This document shows, one piece after another, positions 7,537 through 20,559 of a DNA stretch of 64,000 nt. Every line of letters begins with the position of its first letter. The stretch's first letter is position 1. Under the pieces are notes generated by a model. It did no database searches. It was not told where the DNA came from and worked only from the letters and a program-made list of their open reading frames with translations. The translations under genes were made by a program, and so were the position numbers. This DNA comes from Escherichia coli (GTDB lineage Bacteria > Pseudomonadota > Gammaproteobacteria > Enterobacterales > Enterobacteriaceae), in assembly GCF_051903065.1 (NCBI RefSeq), contig NZ_CP178438.1; one strand, given 5' to 3'.

Positions 7537-8733
7537 CTACTGTGGTGGGTTGTTCTGCAACGTTAACATCAAACCGTCGCGACGCATCGCTGCAGCTTCT
7601 TCCGGCTTGTGCAGTCTGTCCAGCGCGTCGGCAAGCCATGCGTAATCGTAGGCGTCCGGACGTTGTTTCAGCGCTGCGCGGAAGGCGAGCGATGCTTCCT
7701 GCCATTCTCCGTGCTTCATCAGTGACTGGCCCAGTGTGCTCCACAACAGCGGGCGATCGCCGACGTTTTTGATTTGCTGGCGCAGCACTTTTTCAAGCTG
7801 TTCAGGGTTATTGGTTTTCAGACGCGGGATCGGCAGCAGTAGGCGATCGTCATACTGGCGTTTCAGGCCGTCGATGATAATTTGCTGGGCAGTATCATGA
7901 TCGTCACATTCAATAAGATGTTCCGCCATTGCCACCTGCAACGCTACCTGATGACGCGTTTTCCGGCTTTGGTTTTTCCACCAGTTACGCAAACCTTCGC
8001 TACCGTTATCGGCACGCGCCTGATCCATCAGGCCAATCCATGCCTGTTGTTCCAGCATTGCACGATGTTCTTCATCACCAACATGGGCTTTCGCCATTGA
8101 TGGGATAATATCCAGCAGCGAACTCCATGCACCTGTGCGGATATACGCCTGTTCCGCCAGACGTAATACTTCCGGATGGCGTGGCGTAACTTCCAGCAGC
8201 TTATCCACGCCGTGGCGTGCAGCATGGTTTTCATTACGGGCCAGTTGCAGACGTACACGGGTGATTTCTACCGGAATGGTGTCATTGCCGGCCAGCTCCG
8301 CTGCGCGTTCCAGATGTTGGTTGGCGCGCGCTTCATCACCACGTTGTTGCGCGGCTTCGGCAGCCAGTAGATAGTTCACCACCGGTTGTTCAGCGTGATC
8401 GGCATTTTTCGCCATCAGCTTTTCAACTTGCTGATAATCGCCTTCCGCCAGTTTCAGCAGCGCCTGTTCGGTCTGCTTACGTGCACGGCGACGCTTACGC
8501 CCGACAAACCACCCACGGGTGTGCGCGCCAGTGCGGAAGATCCGCCGCAGTAGCCACTCAATGGCAAACAGCACTACCATCGCCAGAATCAATATGATCG
8601 CCAGGCCCGTGACGCTGGTTTCGATATTGTAGTTGTCGGTCTGGATCAGCACATAACCCTGATGACCGGCAATCATCGGGCCAACCACGATCCCCGCAAT
8701 CAGCAACACAAAGAGCAATAACACTTTTAGCAT
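7537..8733 (-). CDS. hemY: HemY (TPR-like inner-membrane protein of the hem operon), 398 aa
   Basis: ORF with N-terminal TM segment; last gene of the hemCDXY arrangement. Confidence 0.85.
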   Translation of the reverse strand: MLKVLLLFVLLIAGIVVGPMIAGHQGYVLIQTDNYNIETSVTGLAIILILAMVVLFAIEWLLRRIFRTGAHTRGWFVGRKRRRARKQTEQALLKLAEGDYQQVEKLMAKNADHAEQPVVNYLLAAEAAQQRGDEARANQHLERAAELAGNDTIPVEITRVRLQLARNENHAARHGVDKLLEVTPRHPEVLRLAEQAYIRTGAWSSLLDIIPSMAKAHVGDEEHRAMLEQQAWIGLMDQARADNGSEGLRNWWKNQSRKTRHQVALQVAMAEHLIECDDHDTAQQIIIDGLKRQYDDRLLLPIPRLKTNNPEQLEKVLRQQIKNVGDRPLLWSTLGQSLMKHGEWQEASLAFRAALKQRPDAYDYAWLADALDRLHKPEEAAAMRRDGLMLTLQNNPPQ

Positions 8734-12051: not shown

Positions 12052-14598
12052 TTGTACCTCTATATTGAGACTCTGAAACAGAGACTGGATGCCATAAATC
12101 AATTGCGTGTGGATCGCGCGCTTGCTGCTATGGGGCCTGCATTCCAACAGGTCTACAGTCTACTGCCGACATTGTTGCACTATCACCATCCGCTAATGCC
12201 GGGTTACCTTGATGGTAACGTTCCCAAAGGCATTTGCCTTTACACGCCTGATGAAACTCAACGCCACTACCTGAACGAGCTTGAACTGTATCGTGGAATG
12301 TCAGTACAGGACCCGCCGAAAGGTGAGCTTCCAATTACTGGTGTATACACCATGGGCAGCACTTCGTCCGTAGGGCAAAGTTGTTCCTCTGACCTGGATA
12401 TCTGGGTCTGTCATCAATCCTGGCTCGATAGCGAAGAGCGCCAGTTGCTACAACGTAAATGTAGCCTGCTGGAAAGCTGGGCCGCCTCGCTGGGTGTGGA
12501 AGTCAGCTTCTTCCTGATTGATGAAAACCGCTTCCGTCATAATGAAAGTGGCAGTCTGGGGGGCGAAGATTGTGGCTCCACCCAGCATATACTGTTGCTT
12601 GACGAATTTTATCGTACCGCCGTGCGTCTCGCCGGTAAGCGTATTCTGTGGAATATGGTGCCGTGCGACGAAGAAGAGCATTACGACGACTATGTGATGA
12701 CGCTTTACGCGCAGGGCGTGCTGACGCCAAATGAATGGCTGGATCTCGGTGGCTTAAGCTCGCTTTCTGCTGAAGAGTACTTTGGTGCCAGCCTTTGGCA
12801 GCTCTACAAGAGTATCGATTCCCCATACAAAGCGGTACTGAAAACACTGCTGCTGGAAGCCTATTCCTGGGAATACCCGAACCCACGTCTGCTGGCGAAA
12901 GATATCAAACAGCGTTTGCACGACGGCGAGATTGTATCGTTTGGCCTCGATCCGTACTGCATGATGCTGGAGCGAGTTACTGAATACCTGACGGCGATTG
13001 AAGATTTCACCCGTCTGGATTTAGTACGTCGCTGCTTCTATTTAAAAGTGTGCGAAAAGCTCAGCCGTGAACGCGCCTGTGTAGGCTGGCGTCGCGCAGT
13101 GTTGAGCCAGTTAGTGAGCGAGTGGGGTTGGGACGAAGCTCGTCTGGCAATGCTCGATAACCGCGCTAACTGGAAGATTGATCAGGTGCGTGAGGCGCAC
13201 AACGAGTTGCTCGACGCGATGATGCAGAGCTACCGTAATCTGATCCGCTTTGCGCGTCGCAATAACCTTAGCGTCTCCGCCAGTCCGCAGGATATCGGCG
13301 TGCTGACGCGTAAGCTGTATGCCGCGTTTGAAGCATTACCAGGTAAAGTGACGCTGGTAAACCCGCAGATTTCACCCGATCTCTCGGAACCGAATCTGAC
13401 CTTTATTTATGTGCCGCCGGGCCGAGCTAACCGTTCAGGTTGGTATCTGTATAACCGCGCGCCAAATATTGAGTCGATCATCAGCCATCAGCCGCTGGAA
13501 TATAACCGTTACCTGAATAAACTGGTGGCGTGGGCATGGTTTAACGGCCTGCTGACCTCGCGCACCCGCTTGTATATTAAAGGTAACGGCATTGTCGATT
13601 TGCCTAAGTTGCAGGAGATGGTCGCCGACGTGTCGCACCATTTCCCGCTGCGCTTACCTGCACCGACACCGAAGGCGCTCTACAGCCCGTGTGAGATCCG
13701 CCATCTGGCGATTATCGTTAACCTGGAATATGACCCGACAGCTGCGTTCCGCAATCAGGTGGTGCATTTCGATTTCCGTAAGCTGGATGTCTTCAGCTTT
13801 GGCGAGAATCAAAATTGCCTGGTAGGTAGCGTTGACCTGCTGTATCGCAACTCGTGGAATGAAGTGCGTACGCTGCACTTCAACGGCGAGCAATCGATGA
13901 TCGAAGCCCTGAAAACTATTCTCGGCAAAATGCATCAGGACGCCGCACCGCCAGATAGCGTGGAAGTCTTCTGTTATAGCCAGCATCTGCGCGGCTTAAT
14001 TCGTACTCGCGTGCAGCAACTGGTTTCTGAGTGTATTGAATTGCGTCTTTCCAGCACCCGCCAGGAAACCGGGCGTTTCAAGGCGCTGCGCGTTTCTGGT
14101 CAAACCTGGGGCTTGTTCTTCGAACGCCTGAATGTATCGGTACAGAAACTGGAGAACGCCATCGAGTTTTATGGCGCTATTTCGCATAACAAACTGCACG
14201 GCCTGTCAGTGCAGGTTGAAACCAATCACGTCAAATTACCGGCGGTGGTGGACGGCTTTGCCAGCGAAGGGATCATCCAATTCTTCTTCGAAGAAACGCA
14301 AGACGAGAATGGCTTTAATATCTACATTCTCGACGAAAGCAACCGGGTTGAGGTGTATCACCACTGCGAAGGCAGCAAAGAGGAGCTGGTACGTGACGTC
14401 AGTCGCTTCTACTCGTCATCGCATGACCGTTTTACCTACGGCTCAAGCTTCATCAACTTCAACCTGCCGCAGTTCTATCAGATTGTGAAGGTTGATGGTC
14501 GTGAACAGGTGATTCCGTTCCGCACAAAATCTATCGGTAACATGCCGCCTGCCAATCAGGATCACGATACGCCGCTATTACAGCAGTATTTTTCGTGA
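12052..14598 (+). CDS. cyaA: Adenylate cyclase, 848 aa, TTG start codon
   Basis: Codon at 12052-12054 is TTG; product begins [18 protein letters not shown]...; divergent from hemC. Confidence 0.9.
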
Positions 14599-14637
14599 TG
14601 AACGTGCCGGAAAGCGAGGCTTATCCGGCATGCAATC

Positions 14638-14958
14638 TTAGCGGAAACTGACTGTTTCACCCGCCTGCTGCGTCGCCGCCTGTTCCAGCAAATCCCAGAA
14701 GGTTTCGCCGCTGCGATCGCAAATCCACTCATCGCCTTTCAGATCAAAATGGTAGCCGCCTTGTTTGGTTGCCAGCCATACCTGGTGCAGCGGTTCCTGG
14801 CGGTTGATAATGATTTTGCTGCCATTCTCAAAGGTAATGGTCAGCACGCCGCCGTTGATTTCGCAGTCGATATCGCTGTCGCCATCCCAGTCGTCCAGGC
14901 GTTCTTCAATGGTCAGCCAGAGTTGATCAGCCAGGCGATGAAATTCACTGTCGTTCAT
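14638..14958 (-). CDS. cyaY: Frataxin-like iron-binding protein CyaY, 106 aa
   Basis: 106-aa acidic protein convergent with cyaA. Confidence 0.9.
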
Positions 14959-15040
14959 TGTTGTATCCTGTTTTTAAGTGATGGCGGCAGTATAAGTTGT
15001 TTCGTCTAACAGTGAAATCAACATGGTTCGGCTATAAAAC

Positions 15041-15466
15041 TTAACCTACATACCTCGTCCCATTCCAACGCAAGATTGTATCCTCGTCGCATAAAAGGTT
15101 GTGTACGCCATGATTCTTTTCTTTCATCAGGCTGATTTTGCTACAAAAATAATCAATGTTAATTTTGGAGTTATCCGGGGTCATAATACTGCAAGCCATA
15201 GTTGGTGCGTCACTCGCGGTATATCCACAATCGTCTTTCCCGCAGGCAGCGGGAGGCGTGGAGGGTGAATACGTGCAGTTAAGCGTTTCGGAAATGCCAT
15301 CATCGTTAATGTCGAGGGGACGGCTAATCTCATCGCTGTCAGTGCCTAATGTGGTTGCATCCAGGATGACGTTTGGTTTTTGTATCTCGCTTGTGGCCGC
15401 GTAATTGAAGCTGCTTGCGGCCATTATGCCTAGAGCTATGCCAATCCGTAAGGCTATTTTTTGCAT
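15041..15466 (-). CDS. Small secreted cysteine-rich hypothetical protein, 141 aa (island gene A)
   Basis: ATG with GAGGA RBS upstream; N-terminal signal peptide (ALGIMAASSFNYAA); six Cys in the mature part; start overlaps the stop of gene B; AT-rich. Confidence 0.6.
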   Translation of the reverse strand: MQKIALRIGIALGIMAASSFNYAATSEIQKPNVILDATTLGTDSDEISRPLDINDDGISETLNCTYSPSTPPAACGKDDCGYTASDAPTMACSIMTPDNSKINIDYFCSKISLMKEKNHGVHNLLCDEDTILRWNGTRYVG

Positions 15467-16749
15467 CCTGGTTCCTCTGTAATAATCATAATGTCTCTGT
15501 TTTGAACTTCACGCACATTCTCTTCTCTGACACGAGTTTTCGCCGGACAGGGGGATGGCGTAATCCTGACCTCTGTATCGGTCCAGGTATAAACATTGCG
15601 ATCGTCATAAGCGAAGCGATCGTTTTTAATTAGCGGGCCGTTAGTTGGAATAATTTGCACGCTCTTTGACCGTAATTGGCGGATAAAGTAAACATGTTGT
15701 TTGCCGCCATTAAATGAGTTATCAATGACCAGGTCTGGCGAATCCAGCGGAATTATTTCAAGCTGGTCTTCACCAAAAGTCGATAATTTTGTTACATACA
15801 GACGATCTTTATACTGCGCAATATTGCCAGTAATCAGATGAAATTGTTCAGGTTCAATATCCGGTAGGTCTATCCACTTGCTCCACTGACGGTCGGGCGA
15901 GAGCTGTTTACGCCAGCGAACGCGACTTTCCCCCACTTCAAAAGAGACGTCATCATCTACGGGTATCGCTTTGCCAGATAATTGCCCAAAGGGATAACGA
16001 TGCAGACCATTGTTGTCGCGAAAAACCAGCAGTGAATGAGGTATCCAGCGAATTATCTCAAATGAGTCTGCATTCGCCGTAAGGTGAACGCCATTTAAAT
16101 AAATATTCTGCCCACTGCGGATAAGCAGATCATTGGAATACAAATTTCTGTTTACACTCATAAGACGTGGATTAATACCCCACCATCTTTTTTCTAATAC
16201 AGTAACATTACTGCTGCTCCCCTGACGTCGACCGGACAAATAGAGATTTTTACTATCCACCAGCGTGGTAGAGTTACCTTCGATAGCTTTTAGTGTCGCC
16301 AGATCAACACGTGACGCGCCGCTATTACTTTCGGTGCGCTGTCCATCAAAATAGAGGCTATATTTATCGACCGCGAAGCGGCCCATAGCCTGAAAGCTGG
16401 CAATATCGACAGTGGGTATTCCCGGTGGATTGCTAACGATTTTGCCACGCCAGAGAATAACGCGGCCGTCTGTCACCCAGTGGTATTCCTCATTTTTTAT
16501 GCTTATTTCATCGGTGGGTATATAGCCTTCCACTAACTCCCGCTCCCCGGATATATTTGTCACAAGGCGCAAATCGGCTCTGTTCATCTTCGGAAATTGG
16601 GCAATGATTTTCTCATCCTCCCCATAACCTTTACCGTAAGACATGACACCGTGATCATTGTAATAGTCGAACCCTATGGCCTGTACAGCAGGTGTCAGAA
16701 ATGTGTGCCCCAACAGGATGAGTGCAACTGTGATTATTTGACCATTCAT
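15454..16749 (-). CDS. Secreted repeat protein, DKNYY-like family, 431 aa (island gene B)
   Basis: Signal peptide; repeated motifs DKYSLYFDG, SKNLYLSG, GQNIYLNG, ANADSFEII; paralogous to the upstream 502-aa gene; ATGA overlap with that gene's stop. Confidence 0.8.
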   Translation of the reverse strand: MNGQIITVALILLGHTFLTPAVQAIGFDYYNDHGVMSYGKGYGEDEKIIAQFPKMNRADLRLVTNISGERELVEGYIPTDEISIKNEEYHWVTDGRVILWRGKIVSNPPGIPTVDIASFQAMGRFAVDKYSLYFDGQRTESNSGASRVDLATLKAIEGNSTTLVDSKNLYLSGRRQGSSSNVTVLEKRWWGINPRLMSVNRNLYSNDLLIRSGQNIYLNGVHLTANADSFEIIRWIPHSLLVFRDNNGLHRYPFGQLSGKAIPVDDDVSFEVGESRVRWRKQLSPDRQWSKWIDLPDIEPEQFHLITGNIAQYKDRLYVTKLSTFGEDQLEIIPLDSPDLVIDNSFNGGKQHVYFIRQLRSKSVQIIPTNGPLIKNDRFAYDDRNVYTWTDTEVRITPSPCPAKTRVREENVREVQNRDIMIITEEPGCKK

Positions 16750-18254
16750 TTTGTCGCCTCATTGCGCGGGGCAGGAATAAATTCGCCGTCATCGGTAATT
16801 TTTCCGTCCAGATATCCCGTTTTGTAATTTACCCCGTAGCCATATCCCGAATGTTGTTCCTTCCAGATTAAGCGAACTTGTTTCGGATCAGCGGTGCGGT
16901 ATCGCCAGAGCTGCGCGCCATCAAAGCTGTAAACGTAGCGGTTATCGCGGGCATACCATCTGCGCAAAAAGGGATGGTCATTAAGATGGGCTTCGCGTTC
17001 ATCCGGAGAACGGTTATCCAGTAAGATCAGCGGTCCGTCAGATTCAAACACGTGTAAACCGGAATGGTATGGCCACCCTTCGGCACGCGTAAGTAAATAG
17101 CCGTGGCGTTTCCCGGCGTTGAAACGTTTGTTGATAATAAGATTGGGATCATCAAGTTTCACGATCTCCAGCTTGCGGTCACCAGACTCTGTTTCGATGA
17201 TGGTATAAAGCGAGTCCTGATACTGTGCGACAGCATCACTGATGGGGTGAAACTGTTCCGGATCGAGTCCGGGTAATTCTTCCTGTTTACAGTCAGGCCC
17301 CTGACGCCAGAACACTTTCTTTTCCAGCAGAGAAAAATCCAGACAGTGCTTTGTTAAATCTTCATCCCACGCCAGATTTTCCTTGTCGAGGACTTTACGC
17401 TGCAGCCCGTTTTTATCACGCCAGGTCAAGAGTGAGCCGGGCATCCAGCGCACGACGGAAAAAGTGTCCGGGTCGGCATCAAGCTGTTCGCCGTTGATCA
17501 GGATTTTGGTTCTTGTACGAGCCAGGGTATCCCAGGGGCCAAATGGCATAGCCACACAGGGATTAAACGCGGTAGAAAACTTTCCTCTTTGATCCCATGA
17601 CTTTTGTGCCAGCACACGGAAACTCTCGGGGTCAGCGAGGCGATGCCCATCGACATATAAGAAATTAGCGTCACGTAATATCAGCCCCAGTAAGTCAGGA
17701 TCCCAGGGAGGCCGGAATTCCACCTGATGCAGTGTTTTGATATCTACGCTATTTCCCCCGCCATTGTCATCGGTGCGCTTGCCTTCGAAATAGAGACTGT
17801 GTTTATCTGCGGCAAAATCACCCCATGCCTTGAACGAGGCGACATCGACGGGAGGTTTGTCTGGCGGGTTTTGCACAACTTCACCCGCGTAGAGGATATT
17901 GCGGCCATCGCTATGCCAGGAGTAATGAGGATACCAGGCTTGTGCGCCTTCATAGAGGTAGTCGGTTGTTAGATCAGTCAGAGGTGGTTCTTTATTCCAT
18001 TCATCTTGTGTTGTTGGGTCTATTAATAAATTGGGTAAACGGCGCAAACTCTTGTAATTCACGTCAGGTAGAGAAAGATTTGTTTCTTTATAAGGGCGCA
18101 GGTACACCACGCCTTTTCCCTGTTTCTGGTAAATATTATGTTCAGGTGCATCAAGCCGACATCCCCATGCCGACGATAAGAACAATGAACAAGCCAACAA
18201 ACAAACCACATTGCGATAGTGCATAAAGCCATCCTGGCGCGAGGTGTTGATCAC
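16746..18254 (-). CDS. Secreted repeat protein, DKNYY-like family, 502 aa as called (island gene C)
   Basis: GTG at 18254, or ATG at 18224 giving MHYRNVVCLLACSLFLSSAWG... signal peptide; motifs DKHSLYFEG, DANFLYVDG, ADPESFRVL, ADPDTFSVV; similar to gene B (e.g. NPPDKPPVDVASFKAWGDFAADKHSLYFEGKRT vs NPPGIPTVDIASFQAMGRFAVDKYSLYFDGQRT). Confidence 0.8.
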   Translation of the reverse strand: MINTSRQDGFMHYRNVVCLLACSLFLSSAWGCRLDAPEHNIYQKQGKGVVYLRPYKETNLSLPDVNYKSLRRLPNLLIDPTTQDEWNKEPPLTDLTTDYLYEGAQAWYPHYSWHSDGRNILYAGEVVQNPPDKPPVDVASFKAWGDFAADKHSLYFEGKRTDDNGGGNSVDIKTLHQVEFRPPWDPDLLGLILRDANFLYVDGHRLADPESFRVLAQKSWDQRGKFSTAFNPCVAMPFGPWDTLARTRTKILINGEQLDADPDTFSVVRWMPGSLLTWRDKNGLQRKVLDKENLAWDEDLTKHCLDFSLLEKKVFWRQGPDCKQEELPGLDPEQFHPISDAVAQYQDSLYTIIETESGDRKLEIVKLDDPNLIINKRFNAGKRHGYLLTRAEGWPYHSGLHVFESDGPLILLDNRSPDEREAHLNDHPFLRRWYARDNRYVYSFDGAQLWRYRTADPKQVRLIWKEQHSGYGYGVNYKTGYLDGKITDDGEFIPAPRNEATK

Positions 18255-18333
18255 GATACTGCCAGCAGAACATAAATCCTCACACGTAAGCGTAATTCTC
18301 GCGGCAAATCGTCACTTTTCAGAATCCATAAAG
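18163..18333. repeat. Copy 1 of a 171-bp direct repeat (promoter/leader/signal-peptide module), covering the 5' end of gene C
   Basis: About 93% identical to 19245-19415 at a constant offset of 1082 bp (ccccatgccgacgataa...cacttttcaga). Confidence 0.9.
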
Positions 18334-18590
18334 GTCATTGCTATTTTCTGATAGTTGCTGGGGTAAACGTGATGTTTTCATTCACGATATAAATACGAGG
18401 TACTGCGCCATGGTGTGACTGATCACGTTAAAATGTGCCGGGTTGACGCCGGGAAGGGGTTCAACATGCGACTCTGCCCCCGTTGCCTACTTTATTGTCT
18501 TTCGCGAGTTGTACCCATGTTCCACCACTGGTATCTAACATTCTCCACATTATTACGCTTTCTGCCGAATGTGATTTTTATAGAAATCTA

Positions 18591-19145
18591 TCAATTCATT
18601 TTCCCTGTGCCATAAATTTTATCCTTCACATCCTGCCGAACGCGGGTCTTGTACCCCCCGTTGTGAAGATCTTCATACGGAGAAAAAGAATCTTTACTCC
18701 ACCCCAGCAGCACTTTATCGCCAGGCATAAAATGCACATGCAGAAAATCTTCTCCCCATTCTCTTTTGGGGAGAGGTAACGTCATATTCCGTTTCTCCAG
18801 ACGCATTCCAGCATTATACTGTGTACGAGTAGTACTTAATGTCCAGATAACCTCTGCAGTATCCCCACTGACATCACCACAACAGGTTGTTGAACCTCCA
18901 CCATTTGCAAAAGCATTCGCGCCCGCCACGCCGTTAACACTGAATCCCAGTATCGGACGGTCAATTTCACTGTGGATTTCCAGAATCACTCCACCTCTTG
19001 GACCTCCCCATACTGCCTGCCCTATATTCCACAACACGACCAGTACTGGAACGACAATTAACGTCCGCCATACCCAGCGCCCCCAGCGGGCATAACCGCG
19101 CGTAAGCTTTTGGTCAAATTTTTCCAGTTGGGTAAATAGCCCCAT
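18591..19145 (-). CDS. DUF3304-like membrane-anchored protein, 184 aa (island gene D)
   Basis: ATG with AGGGA RBS upstream; N-terminal TM segment (WRTLIVVPVLVVLWNIG); motifs GFSVNGVAGANAFANGGGSTTCCGD and LHVHFMPGDKVLLGW resemble DUF3304 proteins as I recall them. Confidence 0.6.
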   Translation of the reverse strand: MGLFTQLEKFDQKLTRGYARWGRWVWRTLIVVPVLVVLWNIGQAVWGGPRGGVILEIHSEIDRPILGFSVNGVAGANAFANGGGSTTCCGDVSGDTAEVIWTLSTTRTQYNAGMRLEKRNMTLPLPKREWGEDFLHVHFMPGDKVLLGWSKDSFSPYEDLHNGGYKTRVRQDVKDKIYGTGKMN

Positions 19146-19244
19146 CAGATTTTATTCCCTCTTATCACCAGGTTGGCAAAGTTGTATGTCACTAGCGACT
19201 AAGGTCAGACAACGAAATTGCATGGTGCGCCACTCTATTAAAAG

Positions 19245-19415
19245 CCCCATGCCGACGATAAAAACAACGAACAAGCCAACAAACAAACCACATTGCGATA
19301 GTGCATAAAGCCATCCTGGCGCGAGGTGTTGATCACGAAACTGCCAGCAGAACATAAATCCTCACGAGTAAGCGTTATACTCGCAGCATTTCCTCACTTT
19401 TCAGACTTCATAAAG
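19245..19415. repeat. Copy 2 of the 171-bp direct repeat, upstream of gene D; holds a 32-codon stub of the gene C signal peptide
   Basis: Minus-strand reading from GTG at 19336 gives VINTSRQDGFMHYRNVVCLLACSLFLSSAWGF then a stop at 19238-19240. Confidence 0.9.
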
Positions 19416-19494
19416 AGTCGCTAAACGCTTGCTTTTACGCCTTCTCCTGCGATGATAGAAAGCAGAAAGCGATGAACTTTACAGGCAATCCATA

Positions 19495-19698
19495 ATGAAA
19501 AACGTGTTTAAGGCACTCACTGTATTACTTACTCTCTTCAGCCTGACGGGCTGCGGTCTGAAAGGTCCGCTCTATTTCCCGCCTGCAGATAAAAATGCAC
19601 CGCCGCCGACCAAACCGGTAGAGACGCAAACGCAATCCACGGTGCCGGATAAAAACGATCGCGCCACTGGCGATGGTCCATCCCAGGTGAATTACTAA
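19495..19698 (+). CDS. yifL: Small lipoprotein YifL, 67 aa
   Basis: Lipobox LTGC after a short signal peptide; Pro-rich; directly upstream of dapF. Confidence 0.85.
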   Translation: MKNVFKALTVLLTLFSLTGCGLKGPLYFPPADKNAPPPTKPVETQTQSTVPDKNDRATGDGPSQVNY

Positions 19699-19734
19699 AA
19701 GTCAGTTTCTGTACCCGCGTGATTGGAGTAAATG

Positions 19735-20559
19735 ATGCAGTTCTCGAAAATGCATGGCCTTGGCAACGATTTTATGGTCGTCGACGCGGTAACGCAGAAT
19801 GTCTTTTTTTCACCGGAGCTGATTCGTCGCCTGGCGGATCGGCACCTGGGGGTAGGGTTTGACCAGCTGCTGGTGGTTGAGCCGCCGTATGATCCTGAAC
19901 TGGATTTTCACTATCGCATTTTCAATGCTGATGGCAGTGAAGTGGCGCAGTGCGGCAACGGTGCGCGCTGCTTTGCCCGTTTTGTGCGCCTGAAAGGGCT
20001 GACCAATAAGCGCGATATCCGCGTCAGCACCGCCAACGGGCGGATGGTTCTGACCGTCACCGATGATGATCTGGTCCGCGTAAATATGGGCGAACCCAAC
20101 TTCGAACCTTCCGCTGTGCCGTTTCGCGCTAACAAAGCGGAAAAGACCTACATTATGCGCGCCGCCGAGCAGACAATCTTATGCGGCGTGGTGTCGATGG
20201 GAAATCCGCATTGCGTGATTCAGGTCGATGATGTCGATACCGCGGCGGTAGAAACGCTTGGTCCTGTTCTGGAAAGCCACGAGCGTTTTCCGGAGCGAGC
20301 CAATATCGGTTTTATGCAAGTGGTTAAGCGCGAGCATATTCGTTTACGCGTTTATGAGCGTGGGGCAGGAGAAACCCAGGCCTGCGGCAGCGGCGCGTGT
20401 GCGGCGGTTGCAGTAGGGATTCAGCAAGGTTTGCTGGCCGAAGAAGTACGCGTGGAACTCCCCGGCGGTCGTCTTGATATCGCCTGGAAAGGTCCGGGTC
20501 ACCCGTTATATATGACTGGCCCGGCGGTACATGTCTACGACGGATTTATTCATCTATGA
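19735..20559 (+). CDS. dapF: Diaminopimelate epimerase, 274 aa
   Basis: Start trimmed by one codon to [13 protein letters not shown]; conserved GNDF and catalytic Cys (CGNGARC) motifs. Confidence 0.9.

Follow-up and report, generated by a model that had tools for sequence, protein, structure and literature searches.

Why should a 171-nt sequence occur twice between cyaY and lptM, and why should one of its copies run into a stop codon shortly ahead of a gene in another frame? The question is raised by a 64,000-nt stretch of an Escherichia coli chromosome (RefSeq assembly GCF_051903065.1, contig NZ_CP178438.1), called the window in the following, in which the order is cyaA, cyaY, an intergenic island, lptM, dapF, yigA, xerC, yigB and uvrD. 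The sequence of the window matches strain ECNB21-M121 at 100% identity. The feature under study is this cyaY-lptM island, and all genes involved lie on the minus strand. [quoted passage not shown] The explanation that we consider quite probable is that a T6SS fragment was captured here with duplication of the leader, that its immunity gene was kept as an orphan, and that the repeats have been recombining.

The first-pass annotation of the window had reported two segments of about 93% identity at a constant offset of 1082 bp and had read them as a duplicated 5' module of gene C. A repeat search over the 15-23 kb region of the window, followed by pairwise alignment of the copies with MAFFT, confirmed this: the direct repeat is 171 nt long, 92% identical and spaced by 1082, no other repeat of more than 27 nt was found within that region, and the similarity runs over the full length of both segments and collapses on both flanks, with at most a ragged extension of ~12 nt with an indel at the upstream end. 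Read from GTG, the gene C ORF encodes 502 amino acids with the N-terminus VINTSRQDGFMHYRNVVCLLACSLFLSSAWGC; a more plausible start is the ATG (MHYRN...) at 18224 in copy 1, corresponding to 19306 in copy 2, from which the product begins with MHYRNVVCLLACSLFLSSAWG followed by C. With this likely start, the repeated 5' region of gene C comprises 109 nt of upstream sequence and 21 signal-peptide codons. The Cys residue after AWG is conserved, which suggests that the product of gene C is a lipoprotein. The stub was likewise found to reproduce the gene C N-terminus, the ORF list containing a product of 32 amino acids that ends in ...SSAWGF before the stop. Gene D begins 92 nt past this stop, a distance that had been given as 89 bp.

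Comparison with related organisms indicates which copy is the older one. Homologues of gene C adjoin lptM in Escherichia albertii, Salmonella enterica and Pseudocitrobacter. In each of the three, ~188 nt separate lptM from the start of this gene, which reads towards cyaY behind one leader, with no DUF3304 gene nearby. Since a single leader faces lptM in these organisms, the single-leader state is ancestral and the two-leader state derived, with copy 2 occupying the ancestral site. The lptM-proximal 79 nt of the intergenic region are 100% identical in all E. coli variants and, as also holds for the initial ~25 nt of the repeat, hardly vary between these genera; copy 1 lacks these 79 nt. Copy 2 is 98.6% identical to the single copy of O157. 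Over the first 53 nt, copy 2 and all single leaders show 0-2 differences from E. albertii (2 for copy 2 of the window), whereas copy 1 shows 9-14. Where copy 2, all single leaders and E. albertii have a TATAAC hexamer, AATTAC or AGTTAC stands in each copy 1. Gene C itself, as a single sequence, gave a weak match to the DKNYY Pfam model (PF13644, E=1.7), and several of its homologues carry a precomputed PF13644 assignment or, in RefSeq, the label DKNYY family protein. Literature searches on DKNYY and yzcX returned nothing useful for this locus.

The 911 bp between the copies consist of a 783-nt fragment of a T6SS vgrG island and 128 nt of further sequence. The fragment contains tla1 (DUF4123) remnants, the intact DUF3304 tli1-like gene D and the first ~90 nt of tle1. 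Among the compared loci, which carry L labels (L009 being the T6SS locus of strain cS76a, L018 strain CP131_Sichuan and L002 a B2 strain), the T6SS-1 vgrG island of cS76a aligned with the insert at 91.4% over 764 nt in blastn (window 19223-18462, L009 7001-7764). The aligned part of L009 covers the last 35 nt of the DUF4123 gene, an intergenic GAGGG Shine-Dalgarno sequence, a DUF3304 gene of 184 codons and ~90 nt of a Tle1-like phospholipase gene. The adjoining 28 nt at 19218-19245 match L009 6789-6816 at 93% (blastn), 185 nt further up within the same DUF4123 gene, and both tla1 pieces are fused at an ATG(A/C)AA microhomology. The T6SS-derived DNA starts with the first base past the repeat, which is the third base of the Gly21 codon, where the signal peptide ends; therefore the Phe codon and the stop of the stub are tla1 sequence. 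At the other end, the ORF list contains no ORF in the tle1 remnant, and the 128-nt piece gave no significant blastn or tblastx match in three T6SS loci, all compared loci or the window, and turned up at this locus only when all E. coli genomes were searched. Because the neighbouring T6SS genes are present here as truncated pieces only, the transfer went from a T6SS locus to this site. In cS76a, which has the closest donor-like T6SS locus, the DUF4123 gene is itself split into ORFs of 56 and 210 amino acids (L009 6215-7035), and L010 has one gene of 273 amino acids.

Signs of a mobile element were also sought. There are no terminal inverted repeats at the insert ends and no transposase ORF, and the duplication measures 171 bp versus 2-14 bp for transposons or insertion sequences (IS). 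Cassette exchange, as proposed in the first-pass annotation, found no support in site-specific machinery: there is no dif-like site at ≤3 mismatches in the window, and the island encodes no integrase (attC sites were not part of the search). As for xerC, located at a distance of 2 kb, it belongs to the dapF operon, which is conserved in all variants and outgroups alike. Transposon or IS insertion and site-specific insertion were both rejected for want of inverted repeats, a dif-like site, and a transposase or integrase ORF.

Gene D is intact and conserved. Its product matches Pfam PF11745 (DUF3304) over residues 63-145 (E=2.4e-4) and is named DUF3304 domain-containing in RefSeq, and the same Pfam family is carried by hundreds of enterobacterial homologues and precomputed for most of the homologues at 56-70% identity. 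The T6SS-linked gene located between the DUF4123 gene and tle1 in L009 and L010 shares 91-98% nucleotide identity with gene D, and the T6SS-linked paralogue of L007 shares 69% amino acid identity. The neighbourhood of vgrG, DUF4123, DUF3304 and tle1 holds for L007, L009 and L010, and at gene D only remnants of tla1 and tle1 accompany it. In ten two-leader loci, the 184-codon ORF was intact in every case, and pairwise ratios of nonsynonymous to synonymous substitution (dN/dS) were 0.03-0.24; gene D is under purifying selection. The gene is also mosaic: codons ~101-135 (window 18741-18845) are 77% identical in nucleotides between two allele classes that share 97-98% over the remainder, and one of the classes is 99-100% identical in these codons to the T6SS-linked alleles of L009 and L010. 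This patch is hypervariable and may either determine specificity or represent a conversion tract. By inspection, the N-terminus is basic and is followed by a hydrophobic stretch at about residues 24-40, with no lipobox. Gene D does not use the signal peptide of the leader: it carries a Shine-Dalgarno sequence, a start codon and a putative membrane anchor of its own, derived from the T6SS locus. A PADLOC anti-phage scan of the four island proteins gave no match, and no solved structure was found for gene D.

Across the 5426 complete E. coli genomes that form the base of all species-wide counts, DUF3304 matches were detected in 1673 genomes at 1751 places, so that at most 78 genomes hold more than one copy, paralogues below ~65% nucleotide identity being missed by this count. 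The strain of the window has one such place, and 510 genomes have a 60-80% T6SS-linked paralogue alone. Because 1673 genomes yield just 1751 places, carriers of the orphan rarely also hold a T6SS-linked copy. Gene D lies outside any T6SS cluster, with lptM, dapF and cyaY as neighbours and ~90 nt of tle1 left, and is probably an orphan immunity gene; its assignment to the orphan effector/immunity class, suggested in the first-pass annotation, gains from the DUF3304 tli1-like family and from the tla1 and tle1 remnants beside it. By analogy with characterized proteins of the family, the product most likely neutralizes Tle1-type phospholipases.

These proteins include the Tle1-neutralizing immunity proteins of Burkholderia thailandensis, Klebsiella pneumoniae and Pseudomonas aeruginosa, in which DUF3304 is the domain concerned (PMC13133936). 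The P. aeruginosa module vgrG4a-tla1-tli1b-tli1a-tle1 (PA3294-PA3290), whose Tli1a is a DUF3304 immunity protein for Tle1 (PMC13133936), resembles the source loci of gene D (L007, L009 and L010) in the order vgrG, DUF4123, DUF3304, DUF2235 Tle1, and shares DUF3304 with gene D. However, gene D is detached from its effector, lies outside a T6SS cluster, has a putative membrane anchor instead of a lipoprotein signal and falls far below the Tli1a cut-off. The validated Tli1 of enteroaggregative E. coli, in contrast, belongs to another family, being a DUF2931 lipoprotein whose gene lies downstream of tle1 (10.1101/2024.03.05.583533; PMC9860674). For E. coli, orphan genes of T6SS immunity are mentioned in PMC6730261 and PMC12469244. 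Like these, the arrays of Vibrio cholerae and the acquired interbacterial defence clusters of Bacteroidales, gene D is intact without an effector, close to paired immunity genes elsewhere and found mostly in genomes without the armed module; it differs in being no array within a T6SS cluster or a mobile element but one gene placed between housekeeping genes, with no associated recombinase, behind the duplicated 5' end of a resident lipoprotein gene. The orphan cdiA-CT/cdiI and rhs-CT/immunity modules are similar in that repeated 5' homology precedes different cargo and the unit can be deleted or exchanged by homologous recombination, but here the cargo is not fused in frame, the repeat is an upstream region plus signal peptide and not a toxin pre-CT region, and there are two copies (three in some strains). 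The coordinates of all features are collected in Table 1.

Table 1. Features of the cyaY-lptM island and their positions in the window.
Feature	Position	Strand	Description
lptM-proximal single-copy part of the divergent lptM / gene C intergenic region	19416..19494	.	outside the repeat
Repeat copy 2, ancestral position	19245..19415	-	109 nt of upstream sequence and signal-peptide codons 1-21, ATG 19306
Stub ORF	19238..19336	-	32 codons from GTG, 22 from ATG; last codon and stop from the inserted tla1 fragment
Two tla1 (DUF4123 adaptor) remnants	19189..19245	-	28-nt internal piece (19218-19245) and last 35 nt (19189-19223)
Gene D	18591..19145	-	intact 184-aa DUF3304 tli1-like gene; frame differs from stub; own GAGGG Shine-Dalgarno; putative N-terminal hydrophobic anchor
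tle1 phospholipase effector remnant	18462..18550	-	first ~90 nt, with indels; L009 alignment runs from tle1 start 7674 to 7764
128-nt piece between tle1 remnant and copy 1	18334..18461	-	present at this locus only; two allele groups ~80% alike
Repeat copy 1, derived	18163..18333	-	signal-peptide codons of the live gene C and the sequence upstream of them
Gene C	16746..18254	-	DKNYY-like predicted lipoprotein, conserved AWG|C; ancestral resident
Gene B	15454..16749	-	partner of gene C in the pair; its secreted paralogue, with 36% aa identity

Across the complete genomes, polymorphism of the cyaY-lptM interval is high. Carriers of the two-leader structure were counted by coverage of at least 80% of the 911-bp inter-copy segment, which was reached in 1116 of 5426, and the two-leader arrangement with gene D is present in ~20%. 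The 128-nt piece adjoining copy 1 was found in 1079 genomes. Because so many genomes share both segments, the two-leader structure is no assembly artefact. A single leader leading directly into gene C was observed in 509 genomes, and the remaining ~70%, K-12 and O157:H7 included, have the leader with a frameshifted 'DKNYY family' pseudogene of ~95-180 nt alone (e.g., L003 1985-2163). This pseudogene of most E. coli is a leftover of the same ancestral gene. Its leaders carry A54, C66 and C73, as do copy 1 and copy 2 of the window, and there are hints that pseudogene-type strains may come from the two-leader haplotype. The whole island of the window at ≥99% is present in 16 genomes only.

When both copies were aligned from ten two-leader strains, about 10 copy-1-specific substitutions in the first 53 nt were common to copy 1 of all ten, and both insert junctions were identical in all of them. 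Since all strains share these substitutions and junctions, the duplication arose once. In the window, differences between the copies affect 10 of the 53 positions of the 5' part but only 3 of the 118 positions that make up the 3' part (Fisher p=5e-4), and polymorphisms of the 118-nt part, such as CAAC/CGGC, go with the strain, in both copies, and not with copy position. The pattern is consistent with gene conversion, in which the partner was either the other copy or a single-leader allele.

Repeat-driven deletion of gene D had also been anticipated, and variants without the 1082-bp unit do exist. A synthetic query representing the expected junction of copy 2 and copy 1 (lptM, copy 2 and the gene C body) gave a single end-to-end match in strain M18 and in at least 40 other genomes, at 98.7-99.6%. 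In M18 the order is lptM, one leader, gene C, gene B and cyaY; its gene C is 99.1% identical to the allele of the window and nested among two-leader alleles, with the B2 strains outside, and its leader combines the upstream part of copy 2 with bases of the copy-1 type. The M18-type haplotype is probably the expected product of a crossover between copy 2 and copy 1, in which case the repeats mediate loss of the unit. A possible, though clearly less probable, alternative is that the repeats are passive scars and that no such crossover took place, M18-like strains having either never received the insert or lost it by allelic replacement, with spread through recombination in the flanks. The ancestral state and the predicted deletion product do share one architecture, the diagnostic bases of the leader's 3' part vary from strain to strain in either copy, and the locus is a recombination mosaic, as the E. 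albertii-like allele in L006 illustrates. However, M18-type leaders carry A54 and C66, which are seen in essentially all copies 1 and are absent from the single leaders of L002 (B2), L017 and E. albertii, the M18-type gene C nests inside the clade of repeat-bearing alleles, and 118 nt at 97.5% identity, as found in the window, are a workable RecA substrate. For individual single-leader strains, whether the unit was lost or never gained is a matter of inferred direction.

Another explanation, close to the one given in the first-pass annotation, is that two tandem gene C-type cassettes once stood here with their own leaders and that gene D took the place of the lptM-proximal body, of which the stub was left. 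Some strains do have DKNYY pairs in tandem, EC_T6 carrying C480-B436, then a third, partial leader, and then C502-B437, and alleles as divergent as 66-78% in amino acids stand behind a near-identical signal-peptide sequence, so that the leader acts as a conserved exchange anchor. Yet in B2 E. coli and the outgroups a single leader with a single C gene occupies the site of copy 2, the junction between the cassettes of the tandem pair keeps leader nt 71-171 only and lacks the upstream 70 nt present in copy 1, and the 128 nt before copy 1 match no C or B gene. Moreover, a cross-strain search for a full-length gene behind copy 2, which the annotation had suggested, found none among the architectures sampled. 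We consider this explanation improbable, and there is no evidence for a second gene C paralogue with a lost body: copy 2 is located at the ancestral single-leader site (shared with E. albertii, Salmonella, Pseudocitrobacter and B2 strains), and gene C continues behind copy 1.

It is very improbable that the stub is functional, whether as a leader peptide or upstream ORF regulating gene D or as a secreted or membrane micro-peptide: its 22/32-codon ORF is intact in most of the loci sampled (the window, L004, L008, L021, L022 and L023), but a 7-nt deletion shifts its frame in L006, L019 and L020, each with an intact gene D, an IS3 element stands between stub and gene D in L018, the 92 nt to the gene D start exclude translational coupling, and the leader shows neither a predicted RNA structure nor an Rfam match. 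Because it is frameshifted in three gene D carriers and too far away for translational coupling, the stub is a by-product, a pseudogene remnant of the 5' end of the single ancestral gene.

The regulatory sequences of the island were scanned as well. Rfam gave no match at E≤1 over 14500-19800, and the folding z-scores of both leaders and of the spacer between stub and gene D (+0.2 to +1.1) indicated no unusual fold; an RNA element in the leader was ruled out on these two grounds. A sigma-70 consensus scan of the gene strand over 18000-19600, covering both copies and the T6SS-derived spacer, found none, a result that is uninformative on promoters either way. The promoter that the first-pass annotation read into the repeat is a putative one; copy 1 has neither the 79 lptM-proximal nt nor an unmutated TATAAC hexamer. 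One terminator-like hairpin was seen, inside gene D and at chance level, and none that is convincing between gene D and gene C. Gene D is probably transcribed from the ancestral promoter, located within copy 2 or upstream of it, by read-through that continues into gene C.

On the preferred explanation, capture of a T6SS fragment with leader duplication, the history of the locus may have been as follows. The cyaY-lptM interval would anciently have held the DKNYY-like lipoprotein gene C, usually with its paralogue B, read away from lptM behind one leader. In one E. coli lineage, illegitimate recombination would have joined a piece of a vgrG island (tla1-tli1-tle1) to the last signal-peptide codon of gene C, with simultaneous duplication of 171 nt of the gene C 5' end. 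The flanking tla1 and tle1 sequences would then have decayed while gene D was kept intact, presumably as an inner-membrane-anchored, periplasm-facing orphan immunity protein against Tle1 phospholipases from T6SS-armed E. coli, translated from its own ribosome-binding site. The two leader copies could subsequently have served as a substrate for homologous recombination, giving rise to both gene conversion and precise loss of the 1082-bp unit.

Several points weigh against this history. The product of gene D scores 20.1 bits against the NCBIfam model Tli1a_fam, whose cut-off is 110, so that it lies far under the equivalog threshold, and its single-sequence Pfam match is weak; it has a putative membrane anchor and not the lipoprotein signal of P. 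aeruginosa Tli1a, and neutralization of Tle1 by this E. coli DUF3304 protein is argued by analogy. For the 128-nt piece, the searches described above gave no source. Over the first 53 nt, copy 1 and copy 2 have diverged by ~19%, which is more than an intraspecific duplication predicts; relaxed constraint, adaptive change or a foreign allele are possible causes. Without a promoter consensus on the gene strand, the source of transcription is a guess. In addition, window-like single-leader strains could stem from allelic replacement, the product being the ancestral architecture.

Orphan immunity genes are a well-known phenomenon, and so is repeat-mediated deletion. Literature searches found no earlier description of this locus. 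This apparently unarmed immunity gene against a Tle1-type phospholipase module is carried by roughly a fifth of sequenced E. coli, O26:H11, O111 and O104:H4 lineages among them; the module itself is present beside a T6SS in about one in ten. If gene D is functional, it would shape which strains survive T6SS-armed competitors in the gut. The locus represents a clean, datable case of weapon-locus domestication, in which effector and adaptor decayed and the immunity gene was kept, and in which the 171-bp duplication that came with the insertion then governs later gene conversion and loss. For annotation, it is useful that the 32-codon ORF is a stub, although no new principle follows. A more far-reaching idea, to which we give little credence, is that the leader/signal-peptide segment is a standing homology anchor, a recombinase-free site for capture and exchange of divergent lipoprotein alleles and defence genes, that the DKNYY pair takes part in the same envelope defence, and that codons ~101-135 of gene D track the Tle1 variants circulating in E. 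coli.

Further observations concern individual loci. In the window, an extra ORF of 141 amino acids with a signal peptide (15041-15466, minus strand) overlaps and truncates the 3' end of gene B, and ~490 bp at 14995-15483 stand where other strains have 71 bp; the ORF had no match in Pfam, NCBIfam or PADLOC. In L018 (182-1410), an IS3-family element lies in the tla1-derived spacer between the stub and gene D and cuts gene D off from the copy 2 region. When the species representatives of GTDB were scanned for the exact pattern of the stub/tla1 junction, a single contig only was returned (L024 1-4058, JAIJJM010000270.1, ~4 kb, from a 'Collinsella sp.' metagenome-assembled genome), which is 95.7% identical to the E. 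coli locus and looks like E. coli DNA placed there by a binning error. The second DKNYY pair C480-B436, observed in L008 (3215-8922) and also in L005, L018 and L022, is very divergent, with 66% and 56% amino acid identity to C502 and B437, and is located between leader copy 1 and the third, partial leader copy (nt 71-171) that precedes C502. Finally, L006 (3826-5883), L019 and L020 contain a 685-aa C-B fusion gene whose C part is 88% identical in nucleotides to E. albertii and 78% to the alleles of other E. coli, pointing to an allele of interspecies origin or great age.

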